Source: Escherichia phage MN01 | Strand: one strand, 5' to 3' | DNA: 64,000 nt | Sequence record: MT129652.1 | Shown here: positions 4,050 to 59,685 of the stretch, one piece after another | Layout of the letters: every line of letters starts with the position of its first letter | How positions within the stretch are numbered: position 1 is the first letter of the stretch | The notes under the pieces: generated by a model | What the model saw: the letters and a program-made list of their open reading frames with translations, nothing else | Told to the model about the DNA's origin: nothing | Databases searched by the model: none | Made by a program: the position numbers and the translations under genes

Positions 4050-4500
4050 GAAAAACAAGGTGAAAGAATTATCTGCTGGCATTATTTTCATGACTGAAGA
4101 TAAAGAGTTATTCATGGGTCGTGTGACTGGTTCTCGTAAACCAGGTATGCCTGCACACAAATGGGACATCCCTAAAGGTCATGTTGAAGCTGGTGAATCC
4201 CCGATTGAAGCGGCTATCCGTGAAACCGAAGAAGAAACCGGGTTTACTCAATACGACCCGGCATTCTTAAAGGACCTGGGCGAATTCCGTTATTCAGATA
4301 ACAAAAATCTTCACCTGTTTTTGTACACGGTTCCGGTCGAGCATGAGCAGTTCAGACATAGTAAATGCTCTGCCTATCATACCTTCCCGGATGGTAGTTC
4401 GATTCCAGAGTTCGATGCATTTGCTCTGATTAAACCAAGTCAATGGCAGTATGTGATGGGCAAATCGATGTACAAGGTACTGACTCAAATTTTCGGATAA
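4042..4500 (+). CDS. nudE: Nudix hydrolase NudE (e.1)
   Basis: Nudix box GHVEAGESPIEAAIRETEEETGF; position immediately upstream of lysozyme as in T4. Confidence 0.8.
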   Translation: MSKKNKVKELSAGIIFMTEDKELFMGRVTGSRKPGMPAHKWDIPKGHVEAGESPIEAAIRETEEETGFTQYDPAFLKDLGEFRYSDNKNLHLFLYTVPVEHEQFRHSKCSAYHTFPDGSSIPEFDAFALIKPSQWQYVMGKSMYKVLTQIFG

Positions 4501-4526
4501 TAAATACCCCTATATAAGGGGGTATT
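4497..4526 (+). promoter_or_regulatory. Late-promoter-like TAATAAATA plus hairpin sequestering the lysozyme SD
   Basis: AATACCCC (4503-4510) pairs with GGGGTATT (4519-4526); SD AGGGGG sits in the 3-prime arm; ATG at 4527. Confidence 0.5.
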
Positions 4527-5018
4527 ATGAATATATTCGAAATGTTACGCATAGATGAAGGTTGTAAGTTGGATTTGTATAAAGATACTGAAGGCTATTG
4601 GACCATTGGTATCGGGCAACTGATAACTAAGAACCCATCAAAAGATGTTGCTCGTGCCGAGCTCGACAAACTCATGGGTCGCGTCTGTAATGGTCGCATA
4701 ACCCAGCACGAAGCTGAAACATTGTTTAACCGTTCGGTCGAAAAAGCTAAAGCCGGAATCTTGAGACACCCTGTCTTAAAACCTGTTTATGATGTGCTAG
4801 ATGAAGTTCGTCGTTGTGCACTCATTAATATGGTATTCCAGATGGGTGTTGCTGGTGTTGCTGGTTTTCCTAAGGGTATGCGACTTCTGAAGTCTAAATC
4901 ATGGGAAGCAGCTGCTAAGGAACTGGCGGACTCAAGATGGTATAAAGTCCAGACTCCGAACCGAGCCAAACGAGTTATAGAAACGTTCCGTACTGGAACT
5001 TTTAGCGCATACAAATAA
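4527..5018 (+). CDS. e: Endolysin (T4 lysozyme e, muramidase)
   Basis: N-terminus [12 protein letters not shown]...[13 protein letters not shown] and [12 protein letters not shown]...PNRAKRVI closely match T4 lysozyme. Confidence 0.95.
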
Positions 5019-20419: not shown

Positions 20420-20648
20420 AGAATATCTTGAGACTGCTGATAAGGTGGTCCGTGAATTAACTCTGGCCTATTATAAAGAACACGGTAAACTTCCGGATAG
20501 TTATTCAGTATTGAAATCTGCTTTAACTCGTTCATATAATAATATGCGTTCAGAAGTTTATGGTATTATGGTCAAACATAAAGAACAAACCGGTCAATAC
20601 CCCGATTATACTGAGACCTTCAAACAAGTATTAGGAATTAAGGAATAA
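20406..20648 (+). CDS. Hypothetical protein
   Basis: 80 aa ORF. Confidence 0.45.
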
Positions 20649-21772: not shown

Positions 21773-21802
21773 GTTTACAACGATTCCGAAATAGATTATA
21801 AT
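21773..21802 (+). promoter_or_regulatory. Sigma70-type early promoter
   Basis: GTTTAC, 18-bp spacer, TATAAT. Confidence 0.4.
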
Positions 21803-22015: not shown

Positions 22016-22318
22016 ATGAATTTATTTGAATTTGAAGGTAAAACTATTCGTATTACTGAAGAAGATGTCGACCATTATGTTGACTGGCCTGAATTAAACG
22101 GCAATCGCGGTTTTGAGTCAGGCGAGCTCTGTGAAGGTGCTGAAGTTAAAATCTTGAAGGTGGAGATTTCTCCATGGGGCAATCCTGAAATCATTGGCGT
22201 AACTGCTATCGAATTCAATGGTAAGGTATACGAATACACTAAAGAAATGTTTGAAGATACTAAAGCTTCATTCTGGTGTTTTTGGACTAACGATGATAAT
22301 GAATTTGAGGTCGCATGA
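22016..22318 (+). CDS. Hypothetical acidic protein
   Basis: 100 aa ORF. Confidence 0.5.
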   Translation: MNLFEFEGKTIRITEEDVDHYVDWPELNGNRGFESGELCEGAEVKILKVEISPWGNPEIIGVTAIEFNGKVYEYTKEMFEDTKASFWCFWTNDDNEFEVA

Positions 22319-22491
22319 AAACTGCATTAGTCTATACCGAAAAGTTAAACGGTGACAAGGTCTGGAAACTTCTTATCAAAGGAAGCCCTACTGACCAGTT
22401 TATGGCCACCTGTGTGGGATTGTATACTCGTCCTACCAAAAAGATGATTCGTCAATTTAAACGGTTGCACCGTTCGTTCTACGGGGTCTGA
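22315..22491 (+). CDS. Hypothetical small protein (58 aa)
   Basis: ATGA overlap with upstream stop; basic C-terminus. Confidence 0.35.
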   Translation: MKTALVYTEKLNGDKVWKLLIKGSPTDQFMATCVGLYTRPTKKMIRQFKRLHRSFYGV

Positions 22492-22582
22492 TATGGATGC
22501 TCTTATTACGGTATTTTGGGTCGGAGTTGTTTTATTCGGATTGTTGTTAGTGCTAAGTTGCACTGCTAAACTATTAGGATAT

Positions 22583-22620
22583 TAATAAATACCCTTATCT
22601 AATAATGGTAAGGGTTTATT
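22583..22620 (+). promoter_or_regulatory. Late-promoter-like TAATAAATA plus hairpin sequestering the gene 49 start region
   Basis: AATAAATACCCTTA pairs with TAAGGGTTTATT immediately 5-prime of the ATG at 22621; same TAATAAATACCC motif as upstream of e. Confidence 0.5.
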
Positions 22621-23094
22621 ATGTTGTTGACTGGCAAATTATACAAAGAAGAAAAACAAAAACTTTATGATGCACAAGCTGGTAAGTGTCCAATTTGCCA
22701 CCGTGATTTGGACTCTGATGTTCAGGCCAACCATCTTGACCATGACCACGAATTGAACGGGCCAAAAGCCGGTAAGGTTCGCGGGTTACTATGCAATCTG
22801 TGCAATGGAACAGAAGGGCAAATGAAGCATAAGTTCAGCCGTTCGGGTCTGAAAGGTCGTGATGTTGACTACCTGGAATGGTTAGAGAGTTTGCTTGTCT
22901 ATCTGAAATCTGATTATACCGAAAACAATATTCACCCTAATTTTGTGACAGACAAAGCTAAAGAGTTCGGTCGCCTGGGGAAAGAAGAAATGATTCAGGA
23001 AATGCTTTTGAACGGCATGACTTATAATGAATCTGATACGAAGCCTAAACTACAAGCTTCATTTAAAAAACAACTGAGGAAATCGCTTAAATGA
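22621..23094 (+). CDS. 49: Endonuclease VII (Holliday junction resolvase)
   Basis: MLLTGKLYKEEKQKLYDAQAGKCPICHRDL...HLDHDHELNGPKAGKVRGLLCNLCN...KKQLRKSLK closely matches T4 gp49; 157 aa. Confidence 0.93.
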   Translation: MLLTGKLYKEEKQKLYDAQAGKCPICHRDLDSDVQANHLDHDHELNGPKAGKVRGLLCNLCNGTEGQMKHKFSRSGLKGRDVDYLEWLESLLVYLKSDYTENNIHPNFVTDKAKEFGRLGKEEMIQEMLLNGMTYNESDTKPKLQASFKKQLRKSLK

Positions 23095-23179
23095 TTAATT
23101 TTTATGGAATTATTGTATATTGTATTGGCGAAGCTATAAACAATTTAATACGATTGATGGGTGAGGAGTATCCTTCTCA

Positions 23180-23431
23180 ATGGCTATTCCTCGTAACCAA
23201 TACAGGACCTTTCTAATGAACAAATTTCGTAATGCTGTTTCTGATATCCTGGCCAATATTACATTTGTCTTGTTTATTGTGTGCCTTTTAATTCTGGTCG
23301 TCCCATTTGGATTGCTGTTTGTGATGATTGGCGCCCTGAGTACTGAAAAGGGCCTTGAAGGGTCTGAGTTCGACAAACGAATCCAGGCTGTCCATAGTGT
23401 TATTGCTAAAATGATGAAGGTGAAAGAATGA
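23180..23431 (+). CDS. Hypothetical membrane protein
   Basis: 83 aa; central hydrophobic helix ITFVLFIVCLLILVVPFGLLFVMIGAL. Confidence 0.4.
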   Translation: MAIPRNQYRTFLMNKFRNAVSDILANITFVLFIVCLLILVVPFGLLFVMIGALSTEKGLEGSEFDKRIQAVHSVIAKMMKVKE

Positions 23432-23727
23432 AACGTTTTGAAGAATATGTAGCTACTAATTGGACTGCATGGGACAAGTTCGGTGATGAATGGTACTTCC
23501 ACGACTGTGACCTGGACCCGAAATTCTTTGCTGATAAAGAAGAAGACCTTAAAGATATCTATGCTCTATCTGAGATTCATGGAATCAAACCGACGGTTTA
23601 TTTCTCTTTCGATGACACAGGTTTCCTTATTCAGATTTATGTCCCGTACGCAACTTCCAGCGATGAAGAAGTTATTAAAACCTGGAACTACCAAGGAGTG
23701 ATTTCCTGTGGGCCAAAACTCGACTAA
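23428..23727 (+). CDS. Hypothetical acidic protein
   Basis: 99 aa; ATGA overlap. Confidence 0.5.
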   Translation: MKRFEEYVATNWTAWDKFGDEWYFHDCDLDPKFFADKEEDLKDIYALSEIHGIKPTVYFSFDDTGFLIQIYVPYATSSDEEVIKTWNYQGVISCGPKLD

Positions 23728-24025
23728 GATTGAAATCTATGGTATTCCCGAAGAAGTCGGTCGATGCCCAGGTTGTATGCACGTCAGGAGCCTTCTGGGC
23801 TCCTTAAACCTTCCTTATACATTCTATTCAGTCCTTAACAAACAAGGCTCTGAAATCGCTTATGACAGGCCTTTAATCGTGTCTCTGGCCAAGCGTGCTG
23901 GATATCCTACCCTTAACATTCGTTACCCGGTGATTTTTGTCAATGATGAAAAAATGACCAATATTCCTGCCTTTAAAACAAAACTGATATCCCTGGGGTA
24001 TGACCAGGACTTAATTGAAGATTAA
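23708..24025 (+). CDS. Glutaredoxin/NrdH-like thiol-disulfide oxidoreductase
   Basis: GTG start with AAGGAG SD; KIEIYGIP-x5-CPGC active-site pattern and later YPVIFVND resemble a glutaredoxin fold. Confidence 0.55.
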   Translation: MGQNSTKIEIYGIPEEVGRCPGCMHVRSLLGSLNLPYTFYSVLNKQGSEIAYDRPLIVSLAKRAGYPTLNIRYPVIFVNDEKMTNIPAFKTKLISLGYDQDLIED

Positions 24026-44990: not shown

Positions 44991-45158
44991 ATGAAAACAT
45001 TCAAAGATTTTATCAACGAAGATATGGTTGCCGGTGATGCAGGCGGAAACCCAACTAATATCGCAACAGGTACCACTTCCGGGGCAGTTGTCAATAAAGG
45101 CCCTGAACAAATCCCATCAAAAAAGCGTAAGAACAAAGACGATAAACCTACAGTATAA
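44991..45158 (+). CDS. Hypothetical small protein with CTS-like N-terminus (MKTFKDFINED)
   Basis: 55 aa; N-terminus resembles the internal-protein capsid-targeting sequence; late promoter upstream; reading frame depends on the A-run at 45117-45124. Confidence 0.35.
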   Translation: MKTFKDFINEDMVAGDAGGNPTNIATGTTSGAVVNKGPEQIPSKKRKNKDDKPTV

Positions 45159-45190
45159 TGGTCCTTCGGGGCCATTGAAATGAGGAAACT

Positions 45191-46219
45191 ATGTCATATA
45201 TTGATAAAGAATTTGCAGTCAGAGCTTTATCGTATCAACCACGTTATAGAGAAGTCACCGGGAGCACATTTAAGGCAAACTGTCGTTGCAAGGTTTGCGG
45301 TGACTCTCAGAAAGATTCACACAAGGCCCGATTCTGGGCGTATACCAATCCGGCTGACGGTGCGGTTTACGTGAAATGTTTTAACTGTGACTACTCCACG
45401 CATATAAGCAAATACATAAAAGAGTTTGAGCCTGATTTACATCGGGAATATATGGTTGAGAAGTATAAGGAGAATGCCTTTGGCAGACAACGTAATGAAG
45501 TTGCAGAAACTCCGAAAGAACCAGAAAAAACTCCGGTTATTGAGCAACTTGCTTTTTGCGAAAGAATCGATACTTTACCAGAAGCGCATCCGATAGTTAA
45601 GTATGTAAAAAGTCGGTGTATTCCGAGCAATGTTTGGAACCGGTTATGGTTTACAAACAAATGGCCTGCATTAGTTAACTCCGTTAATCCTGGGACGTAT
45701 AAGAATGAAACGAATGAACCACGCTTGGTTATTCCTATCTTCAACGGCAAAAAAGAAATCGAATCTTTCCAAGGACGAGCTCTTCGCAAAGATGCACCAC
45801 AAAAATATATCACAATCAAAGCCCACCCAGAAGCTTCCAAAGTCTATGGTGTAGACAAGATTGACGAACGCAAGCGCGTGTGGGTAATGGAAGGTCCGAT
45901 TGATAGTTTGTTTATCCCTAACAGCATTGCGATAACCGGTGGAACATTAGCATTGGAAGCCGTTCCTTATGCAGAAACCCGAGTATGGGTAATGGACAAC
46001 GAGCCAAGACATCCTGATACGATTAAACGTATGAAGAAACTTGTTGAAGCCGGTGAAGCCGTTATGTTCTGGGACAATGCACCATGGCATACGAAAGACA
46101 TAAATGAGATGGTTAAATCAGAGGGTGCAACCCCTGAACAAATCGAATCATATATGGCCGATAACGTTACTCAAGGGCTGCTGGCGAGAATGCGACTTTC
46201 GAAGTACGCAAAAGTTTAG
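45191..46219 (+). CDS. 61: DNA primase gp61
   Basis: N-terminal zinc-binding CRCKVCGDS...CFNC, TOPRIM-like core; 342 aa as in T4. Confidence 0.9.
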   Translation: MSYIDKEFAVRALSYQPRYREVTGSTFKANCRCKVCGDSQKDSHKARFWAYTNPADGAVYVKCFNCDYSTHISKYIKEFEPDLHREYMVEKYKENAFGRQRNEVAETPKEPEKTPVIEQLAFCERIDTLPEAHPIVKYVKSRCIPSNVWNRLWFTNKWPALVNSVNPGTYKNETNEPRLVIPIFNGKKEIESFQGRALRKDAPQKYITIKAHPEASKVYGVDKIDERKRVWVMEGPIDSLFIPNSIAITGGTLALEAVPYAETRVWVMDNEPRHPDTIKRMKKLVEAGEAVMFWDNAPWHTKDINEMVKSEGATPEQIESYMADNVTQGLLARMRLSKYAKV

Positions 46220-57657: not shown

Positions 57658-59490
57658 ATGATGATTAATAATGAAATTAAAGTACTCTCGGACGTTGAGC
57701 ATATCAAAAAACGTTCCGGGATGTATATTGGTTCCAGTTCAAATGAAGCGCATGAGCGATTCTTGTTTGGTGAATATAAGTCCGTAAGCTATGTTCCTGG
57801 TATTGTAAAACTGATTGATGAAATTATCGATAACTCTGTTGATGAAGCAATTCGCACCAGTTTTAAATTTGCCAATAAAATTGATGTCCAAATTAAAGAT
57901 AATCAGATTTCGGTTTCCGATAATGGCCGTGGTATTCCACAGGCAATGGTTACAGACCAAAACGGTGAACAAATCCCTGGCCCTGTTGCAGCATGGACTA
58001 TTCCAAAAGCTGGTGGTAACTTCGGCGATGATGCTGAACGTAAAACTGGCGGGATGAACGGCGTCGGGTCTTCTCTGACCAATATTTTCTCTGTATTGTT
58101 TACCGGGATTACCGCTGATGGTGCAAATGAAATCACCGTTAACTGCTCCAATGGTATGGAAAACAAATGTTGGTCGACTAAGAAATCAAAAGGTAAAGGT
58201 ACGACTGTTATATTTATTCCAGACTTTAGTCACTTTGAAGAAAATAGTCTGTCCCAGATTTATCTGGATATTACATTGGACCGTCTGCAGACTCTTGCGG
58301 TTGTTTATCCGGATATTCAGTTTACCTTTAATGGTAAAAAGGTTGATGGTAATTTCAAAAAGTTTGCCAAGCAATTCGGAACCGAAGTTGTTATCCAGGA
58401 AACTGATACAGTATCGATGGCCTTTACGACTAGTCCGGATGGTTTCCGTCAGTTGACTTATGTCAACAACATTCATACAAAGAATGGTGGGCACCACGTT
58501 GAATGTGTTATGGATGATATCTGTGAACATCTTCAACCAGCCATTAAACGCAAATATAAAGGCATTGAGGTGACCAAGGCACGAGTTAAAGAATGTCTCA
58601 CCATGCTTATGTTCATCCGCGATATGAGCAACATGCGATTTGATTCCCAGACTAAGGAGCGATTGACTTCTCCGGCTGGTGAAATTCGAAATCACATTAA
58701 GATTGATGCCAAGAAAATCGCGCAAGCTATTCTGAAAAATGAACCGCTGATTATGCCGATTGTTGAAGCTGCATTAGCCCGTAAATTGGCAGCAGAGAAA
58801 GCAGCAGAGACAAAGGCGAATAAGAAAGCTTCGAAGGCCAAGGTGCAGAAACATATCAAGGCAAACGAATGGGGTAATGATAAACTGGAAACGACTCTGT
58901 TCCTGACCGAAGGTGATTCCGCAACCGGTCCATTTATCAAGGTTCGCGACCGTGAATTGCAAGGTGCTTATCCGTTACGCGGTAAGTTCAAAAACACATG
59001 GGGTCTGAAAGCTGTTGACGTTATGAAGAACGCCGAAGCCTTTGATGTGTGTGCGATTACTGGTTTAACGATTGGACAACCGGCCGAGAATATGAATTAC
59101 CGAAACATTGCTATCATGACAGATGCGGATGTGGATGGTGTCGGTAGTATCTATCCATCGTTATTGGCGTTTTTCAGTAACTGGCCAGAGTTGTTCCATG
59201 AAGGACGAATTCGCTTTGTGAAAACTCCTGTTATTATTGCGCAGCTCAAAGATAAACAAGAATGGTTCTATTCTCTTCCTGACTATGAAGAAGCTAAGGA
59301 TAAACTTCCGAAGCACACCATCCGATATATCAAGGGGCTTGGTTCTCTGGAAGATGCCGAGTACAAACGCGTATTGCTCGAACCGGTATTCGAAGTTGTT
59401 GAATTACCTGACAACTGGAAAGAACTGTTCGAAATGCTCTTCGGTAAAGATTCCCAGCAGCGTAAAGATTGGATGAATGCGACACTATAA
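57658..59490 (+). CDS. 39: DNA topoisomerase II large subunit gp39, fused with the gene 60 portion
   Basis: GHKL ATPase motifs (IDNSVDEA, DNGRGIP, GGMNGVGSS) and C-terminal TOPRIM region in one 610 aa frame; close match to T4 gp39. Confidence 0.95.
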   Translation: MMINNEIKVLSDVEHIKKRSGMYIGSSSNEAHERFLFGEYKSVSYVPGIVKLIDEIIDNSVDEAIRTSFKFANKIDVQIKDNQISVSDNGRGIPQAMVTDQNGEQIPGPVAAWTIPKAGGNFGDDAERKTGGMNGVGSSLTNIFSVLFTGITADGANEITVNCSNGMENKCWSTKKSKGKGTTVIFIPDFSHFEENSLSQIYLDITLDRLQTLAVVYPDIQFTFNGKKVDGNFKKFAKQFGTEVVIQETDTVSMAFTTSPDGFRQLTYVNNIHTKNGGHHVECVMDDICEHLQPAIKRKYKGIEVTKARVKECLTMLMFIRDMSNMRFDSQTKERLTSPAGEIRNHIKIDAKKIAQAILKNEPLIMPIVEAALARKLAAEKAAETKANKKASKAKVQKHIKANEWGNDKLETTLFLTEGDSATGPFIKVRDRELQGAYPLRGKFKNTWGLKAVDVMKNAEAFDVCAITGLTIGQPAENMNYRNIAIMTDADVDGVGSIYPSLLAFFSNWPELFHEGRIRFVKTPVIIAQLKDKQEWFYSLPDYEEAKDKLPKHTIRYIKGLGSLEDAEYKRVLLEPVFEVVELPDNWKELFEMLFGKDSQQRKDWMNATL

Positions 59491-59517
59491 ATAGATACGG
59501 GAGAATATTCTCCCGTC
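59486..59517 (+). promoter_or_regulatory. Late promoter (TATAAATA) overlapping the gene 39 stop, followed by a hairpin
   Basis: TATAAATA at 59486-59493; inverted repeat ACGGGAGAATATTCTCCCGT at 59498-59517. Confidence 0.4.
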
Positions 59518-59532
59518 TTATAGGAGAAGTCC

Positions 59533-59685
59533 ATGAAAAAGTGGTGGGTTACGTTGTCAAATGGCGAATACGGTTATCTGTGGGCCGATACTAAACCTCT
59601 GTTTGCATCCTTTGTCACCATTATGTGCGAGACTTGGGATGGCGAATACTATACCGCATATGGGCAAGTCTATAAAGTTGAGTAG
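59533..59685 (+). CDS. Hypothetical small protein (50 aa)
   Basis: ATG after AGGAGAAG SD; Trp/Tyr rich; terminator follows. Confidence 0.3.
   Translation: MKKWWVTLSNGEYGYLWADTKPLFASFVTIMCETWDGEYYTAYGQVYKVE

Follow-up and report, generated by a model that had tools for sequence, protein, structure and literature searches.

A late promoter embedded in a hairpin before phage gene 49 (endonuclease VII): very probably a temporal translational switch of the T4 type

The leader of gene 49 in the DNA analysed here, a stretch of 64,000 nucleotides to which we refer as the window, carries an RNA hairpin with a late promoter embedded in its 5′ arm, and we consider it very probable that this element is the known temporal translational switch of T4-type phages. 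The case for this reading is built on the sequence, the predicted fold, the occlusion of the Shine-Dalgarno sequence and the AUG, the geometry of the promoter relative to the hairpin arm, a stem identical to that of T4, and covariation across the family.

Gene 49 (22621-23094, + strand; 157 aa) encodes the recombination and packaging endonuclease VII. It was identified from the list of open reading frames (ORFs), from matches of the ORF at 22621-23094 to the Pfam families PF02945 and PF09124, and by tblastn, in which its product was 100% identical to that of phage VR26 and approximately 82% identical to T4 gp49. Over a 1-kb stretch around the leader, identity is 97% with Escherichia virus TH44 and 91-95% with VR7 and VR26; the source phage is a T4-like myovirus and belongs to the VR7/VR26/TH44 group of the Straboviridae. 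The ORFs listed 5′ of 22621 are tightly packed in the same orientation, with gene 49 at the end of the run, and those that precede it are presumably early or middle genes: an nrdC-like gene, 49.x-like genes, a DUF7279 gene (22315-22491) and, from the ORF list, a 30-aa hydrophobic ORF (MDALITVFWVGVVLFGLLLVLSCTAKLLGY; 22493-22585, + strand) situated between that gene and the promoter of gene 49. Early-like promoters are present upstream of gene 49 at 20511-20540 and at 21773-21802 (the latter of the form GTTTACA-N17-TATAAT), and a terminator scan found no terminator-like site on the + strand between these promoters and the hairpin. The 30-aa ORF is part of the upstream transcription unit, presumably an early one, from which RNA would run into the hairpin. 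Its TAA stop codon (22583-22585) supplies the first three bases of a 12-mer, TAATAAATACCC, and overlaps the start of the promoter. This ORF is an insert shared with IME341 (L008) and absent from VR26, JS98 and T4, in which homology to the window breaks exactly at the T of TAATAAATA. On the 3′ side of gene 49 (23091-24025), the window has small ORFs of 41, 83, 99 and 105 aa, where T4 has nrdD directly after gene 49; the features of related records that lie under the match to this region include 55.8, a predicted membrane protein.

The promoter box, AATAAATA, occupies 22584-22591 on the + strand and has the sequence of a T4-type late promoter, that is, of the gp55-dependent, -10-like element at -13 to -6. 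The T4 late consensus is TATAAATA at these same positions (PMC1524935), from which AATAAATA departs only at -13, with A in place of T; no other variant is as common, and 9 of 50 T4 late promoters have A at this position (PMC2988020). The + strand of the window contains AATAAATA only twice, before gene e and before gene 49. The longer TAATAAATACCC, which the preliminary description had reported to recur upstream of endonuclease VII, does so exactly, at 22583-22594, with the other exact copy upstream of gene e at 4498-4509. This shared 12-mer consists of the late promoter with its A at -13, TAA in front of it, and the first Cs of the anti-Shine-Dalgarno strand. With up to one mismatch allowed, the window yielded three matches against 0.42 expected, a number reached in none of 100 shuffles. 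The third copy (98-109, one mismatch) sits within a coding frame with no start codon nearby; we dismissed it as a further switch on account of the coding frame, and it is probably a chance match. By the -13 to -6 positional rule, the late start site of gene 49 is predicted at A22597 on the + strand, which would place it inside the 5′ arm of the hairpin.

The RNA folds of 22575-22630 and of 22540-22660 both concern a hairpin core at 22584-22620 (+ strand), which with its basal extension becomes a full helix at 22578-22625. The 5′ arm (22584-22599), defined by the fold and by covariation, is the anti-Shine-Dalgarno strand and overlaps the promoter box; it is composed of AAUAA, an AU bulge and ACCCUUAUC. 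A 7-nt loop, UAAUAAU (22600-22606), leads into the 3′ arm (22607-22620), which reads GGUAAGGGU then UUAUU and contains the Shine-Dalgarno sequence. AAUAA (22584-22588) pairs with UUAUU (22616-22620), AU (22589-22590) is bulged, and ACCCUUAUC (22591-22599) pairs with GGUAAGGGU (22607-22615). The pairing just 5′ of the ATG that had been noticed earlier is therefore real but non-contiguous, being interrupted by the AU bulge, and it is two pairs longer than was noted. In longer RNA, GAUAU (22578-22582) pairs with AUGUU (22621-22625), and because of this pairing the AUG is also paired in long transcripts. The Shine-Dalgarno sequence UAAGGG (22609-22614), 6 nt before the AUG, is paired in both the minimum free energy (MFE) and the centroid folds, as is the AUG itself.

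The gene 49 leader has an MFE of -15.5 kcal/mol (z = -2.78), a stability matched by 3 of 200 shuffles. Among 96 candidate starts in the window, that of gene 49 ranks first for pairing probability over the Shine-Dalgarno region and AUG (0.96) and has the fourth lowest start-site MFE (-15.1, against a mean of -6.4 with an sd of 3.7); the three starts with a lower MFE owe it to upstream hairpins, their ribosome-binding sites being far less paired (0.36-0.68). RNA from the predicted +1 retains just 3 nt of the 5′ arm, and late-RNA mimics that start at 22596 and 22597 are essentially unstructured when folded (-2.9 and -1.7 kcal/mol, respectively), with the Shine-Dalgarno sequence free. An Rfam scan of 22300-22900 (E <= 10) returned only sub-threshold noise, the best matches scoring 12-25 bits against gathering scores of 40-140. 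Elsewhere in the window, two hairpins of very high stability immediately precede ORF starts and leave the Shine-Dalgarno sequence largely free: GGTCCTTCGGGGCC, with a UUCG loop, at 45155-45191 before a 342-aa ORF at 45191, and GTGGGAC...GTCCCAC at 2497-2543 before a 228-aa ORF at 2543. These two are likely to be terminators or processing/stability elements.

How might the hairpin and the promoter act together? Early and middle transcripts that start upstream and read through into gene 49 would contain both arms, and such RNA would fold into the helix at 22578-22625, burying UAAGGG and the AUG; with the start site buried, 30S subunits would be unable to initiate. After the onset of replication, RNA polymerase acting with gp55, gp33 and gp45 would initiate from AATAAATA (22584-22591) at approximately A22597. 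The late mRNA, with 3 nt of the 5′ arm, could not form the helix and would be translated; it would thus escape repression because its start inside the 5′ arm precludes the helix. The read-through transcription, the late 5′ ends and the translational effect in this scheme are drawn from the T4 literature or deduced by us. In T4, the Shine-Dalgarno sequence and/or the AUG of e, soc, 49 and I-TevI are sequestered in a helix (PMC3014915 section 29), and the same phenomenon is treated in section 12 of PMC2988022, which cites Barth et al. (1988, Genetics 120:329). In the case of T4 gene e, the RNA made from late promoters that lie within the 5′ strand of the structure can be translated and is translated well, whereas translation of early read-through RNA is lower by approximately 100-fold (PMC3014915 section 29). 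The likeness extends to T4 soc, I-TevI/II/III and segB and to Aeh1 mobE (PMC2988022 section 12, Figure 5), which are late genes within early/middle polycistronic units, whose ribosome-binding sites are sequestered in the long transcripts only, and whose late promoter is so placed that the late RNA is without the inhibitory strand. Their genes and sequences are unrelated to those considered here, and I-TevI differs further in adding transcriptional autorepression via an operator, of which there is no sign here. The in silico fold and the published T4 mechanism therefore agree with the proposal, made in the preliminary description, of a late promoter fused to a hairpin 5′ of the ATG and of a late switch with 5′ ends inside the hairpin, the +1 being a predicted one. 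The hairpin itself is not late-acting; it would repress the early and middle read-through RNA.

The T4 gene 49 leader, which was reportedly the subject of Barth, Powell, Trupin and Mosig (1988, Genetics 120:329), reads AATAATAAATACCCTTATCTATTTAAGGTAAGGGTTTATTATG. It shares with the window the box AATAAATA, the Shine-Dalgarno sequence, the spacing to the ATG and the stem, ACCCTTATC / GGTAAGGGT plus AATAA / TTATT, in a leader of the pattern AATAAATACCCTTATC...GGTAAGGGTTTATTATG. The T4 loop is AUUUA, on a 10-bp stem, as against UAAUAAU here, and from TAATAAATACCC to the ATG the two leaders are otherwise identical; 5′ of the 12-mer their sequences are unrelated, the window having at this place the 30-aa ORF that ends in the TAA of the motif. 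A covariance model of the gene 49 leader gave 50.1 bits for the window and 55.8 bits for T4. Because the box, the stem and the Shine-Dalgarno sequence are the same and the loop alone differs, the window element is, on this comparison, evidently the orthologue of the T4 gene 49 leader, and the comparison with T4 suggested at the outset thus came out in favour of the proposal. The T4 RefSeq/GenBank records have no promoter features at the gene 49 leader, only CDS features, among them that of gene 49′.

Within the coding sequence, the window departs from T4. In the T4 record (AF158101, 46699), an internal-start product, gp49′, is annotated at a GTG at codon 53, with AGGAAAG before it. In the window, codon 53 (22777-22779) is GTT, and the preceding AGGA is replaced by GGTAAG. 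GTG at this codon was found only in T4 and in L029; the window and nearly all relatives inspected have GTT or GTC, GTT being the form in most. The nested 12-kDa gp49′ thus appears from the codons not to be conserved, and it is probably not made from codon 53 in the window phage.

Conservation was followed in 47 IMG/VR loci that encode gp49 relatives. A box of the xxTAAATA type stands at the promoter position in all 47 leaders, in T4 and in all six of the distant relatives examined that are not Vibrio phages, mostly as xATAAATA and, in Aeh1-like phages, as CTAAATA; in each of the 47 leaders and in T4, the box is followed directly by the hairpin, with the Shine-Dalgarno sequence in the 3′ arm. 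The full leaders of the relatives have MFEs of -7.3 to -16.5 kcal/mol, and the late RNAs of the hairpin-bearing leaders 0 to -3.0. The stems differ between lineages, examples being GTTCATC/GAGGTGAAC, CTCTTATC/GAGGTAAGAG, CCTCTATA/TATAGAGG, GAGTCAT/ATGACTC and GTCCTAT/ATAGGGC.

Covariation was assessed over an 8-pair helix in a MAFFT alignment of 32 distinct Straboviridae gene 49 leaders. Paired cells amounted to 90.1%; shuffles gave 68.6%, and sliding the 3′ partner by 1-3 columns reduced the value to 38-49%. In the leaders that diverge most (L037, L040/41, L047, L050 and L054), MAFFT misaligned the 3′ arm, and because these rows were counted as broken pairs, the figure of 90% is conservative. 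Double-sided changes were found in six of the eight pairs. Compensatory cells numbered 59, against 19.3 in shuffles (0 of 500 shuffles reached 59); the shuffle-based statistics are inflated by the relatedness of the sequences, but an artefact is made less likely by the slid-partner control and by the range of pair types observed. RNAalifold independently returned five outer pairs, each with compensatory changes. At pair 21-39, 24 sequences have U-G and six have U-A, a pattern that fits only a structure of the sense-strand RNA. A covariance model recovered only the closer clades together with two spurious minus-strand matches, and its alignment was excluded from the pair counts. The helix has thus been kept by compensatory changes across the 32 leaders, and the structure is conserved in relatives, one of the two points on which the preliminary description had let its proposal stand or fall.

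The same architecture with an unrelated stem was found in Lazarusvirus Apostate, Acajnonavirus Acj9, Krischvirus G2494 and Tulanevirus phiAS4, and also in a Slopekvirus-like Klebsiella phage and in Jiangsuvirus PspYZU05. In the last of these, a Pseudomonas phage (L053, 229-294), the anti-Shine-Dalgarno arm TTCCTCCAATA is placed 5′ of a TATAAATA box at the loop and overlaps it, and the pairing partner of this arm, TATTGGAGGA, lies 4 nt before the ATG (fold, -16.1 kcal/mol); the logic is kept and the placement differs. In Aeh1-like Aeromonas phages (L043-L046, approximately 1460-1506), (A/G)CTAAATA replaces TATAAATA at the base of the hairpin. CTAAATA is the Aeh1-specific late-promoter consensus (PMC1524935; PMC2988020), and because the Aeh1-like leaders carry it, the promoter box co-varies with the late sigma specificity of the lineage while the switch is retained. 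The Vibrio schizo-T4 phages F86 and PVA8 (L052 and L056) have a TATAAACA box, and no comparable local hairpin occluding the Shine-Dalgarno sequence was found in their leaders; in both, gene 49 is preceded by a gene that runs in the opposite orientation. This observation, from a single clade, is consistent with a hairpin that is required only if transcription enters gene 49 from upstream. The switch seems to go back to an ancestor of most Straboviridae, and its box co-varies with the late-promoter consensus of each lineage.

Gene e (4527-5018, + strand), which encodes the phage lysozyme (Pfam PF00959), carries the other exact copy of the 12-mer. Its switch (4499-4529, + strand) has the box AATAAATA at 4499-4506, a 5′ arm at 4503-4511, a loop at 4512-4517 and a 3′ arm at 4518-4526 (+ strand) that contains the Shine-Dalgarno sequence AGGGGG; the AUG is at 4527, and the predicted +1 is 4512. 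Its full leader folds at -13.1 kcal/mol, against 0.0 for the late RNA. Beyond the core hairpin, an outer helix, UUUCGGAUA / UAUUCGAAA, is predicted between 4491-4499 and 4534-4542; here the pre-promoter sequence pairs with codons 3-5 of e, and this helix would exist in read-through RNA only. The T4 gene e leader (McPheeters et al. 1986; reviewed in PMC3014915 section 29) works by the same logic, its helix hiding the Shine-Dalgarno sequence and carrying a late promoter in the 5′ strand, and it differs from the gene 49 leader in the gene, in the stem and in having the AUG outside the core helix. It reads TTTATAAATACCTTCTATAAATACTTAGGAGGTATTATG, with two TATAAATA boxes and another stem, so that T4 e has two late promoters and e of the window one. 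A window-wide scan for further late-promoter/hairpin switches found none that was convincing besides those of e and 49. One candidate, at 59486-59533, was rejected since its hairpin lies downstream of the predicted +1 and so persists in the late RNA. The arrangement there (59486-59535) comprises a consensus TATAAATA, then the strong hairpin ACGGGAGAATATTCTCCCGT, GGAG and an ATG at 59533 (50-aa ORF), with a late RNA of -13.5 kcal/mol, and is possibly the terminator of the upstream gene or a 5′ stabiliser.

Do e and 49, then, carry one and the same promoter-plus-hairpin module, as had been suggested? Both leaders combine the promoter with the anti-Shine-Dalgarno logic, and to this extent the suggestion holds; the exact 12-mer in both is above chance, and both boxes have A at -13, as would be expected of a discrete duplicated or mobile module of common origin inserted before the two genes. 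We nevertheless regard such an origin as very improbable. The identity stops after the 12-mer, the stems being CCCUUAUC/GGUAAGGG in one leader and CCCCU/AGGGG in the other, and the loops and the spacing to the AUG differ as well. The gene 49 covariance model matches only 22578-22626 in the window (E <= 1) and misses the e leader. The core ATAAATA plus CC is, moreover, what any late promoter that abuts an anti-Shine-Dalgarno strand must contain, and because the T4 e leader has another stem and two boxes, the 12-mer identity is specific to this lineage. The resemblance between e and 49 (promoter plus anti-Shine-Dalgarno CC(C)) therefore looks convergent and not like a shared mobile module. A role of the hairpin, sole or additional, as a rho-independent terminator or attenuator that ends the early unit, with gene 49 confined to late times by transcription and not by translation, seems to us quite unlikely. 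A consensus scan does list 22591-22615 (9 pairs, 4 of them G-C, a loop of 7, tail TTATTATGTT), and this is the sole terminator-like site on the + strand between 20187 and 24500. The hairpin shares with rho-independent terminators a stem-loop followed by a T-rich stretch, but its stem is weak (approximately -12 kcal/mol) and A+U-rich, not G+C-rich, and the U-tract is interrupted and not conserved; the site passed only a permissive scan. The tail, UUAUUAUGUU, is merely the coding start AUG UUG UUG (Met-Leu-Leu), and relatives with CUG or CUU as Leu codons (L042, L044, L046 and L017) keep the hairpin without a U-rich tail; what all lineages conserve is the pairing of the Shine-Dalgarno sequence, not a stem with a U run. 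T4 gene 49 is reported to be transcribed early as well. The T4 record annotates the internal-start gp49′, which likewise speaks against termination. A broader reading, in which this lineage regulates gene 49 unlike T4 through a hairpin that is a dual device, combining occlusion of the ribosome-binding site with partial early termination or attenuation, in a switch ancestral to most Straboviridae, we consider unlikely as a whole; under it, gene 49 would yield no product of any kind at early times, because the internal GTG that T4 has for gp49′ is absent (GTT).

Since branched and cruciform DNA are substrates of endonuclease VII, the inverted repeat might act as DNA, either as a cruciform recognised by this enzyme or as a protein operator over the late promoter. 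The latter would have a parallel in I-TevI, which binds an operator that overlaps its own late promoter (PMC2988022). Both forms of this idea are, in our judgement, extremely improbable. The stem sequence varies freely across lineages while the pairing is kept, whereas an operator would conserve its sequence; the U-G wobbles, present in 24 of 30 sequences at pair 21-39 and also elsewhere in the stem, would be A-C mismatches on the other strand or in DNA; and a 9-bp A+T-rich stem with a 7-nt loop makes a poor cruciform. A functionless palindrome could also have arisen by chance in so A+T-rich a region (GC approximately 0.24), and the z score of the single sequence (-2.78) is moderate. The probability of this is close to nil, given the compensatory covariation in 32 leaders, the identity of the stem with that of the T4 leader, for which reviews report sequestration of the Shine-Dalgarno sequence and AUG, and the rank of 1 among 96 for start-site occlusion.

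A temporal translational switch at gene 49 is real but ordinary as a finding, the mechanism having been known since the 1980s for T4 genes 49, e, soc and I-TevI. The comparative part of our study, comprising the covariation across genera and the lineage-specific boxes, confirms a textbook mechanism of T4 and opens no new question. Annotators of a VR7/VR26-like phage can use the element as a marker both of a bona fide late promoter and of the correct start codon for gene 49. For the biology of these phages, the switch would explain how a nuclease of branched DNA, and likewise the lysozyme, can stay untranslated while being transcribed in early operons, and be turned on with late transcription.
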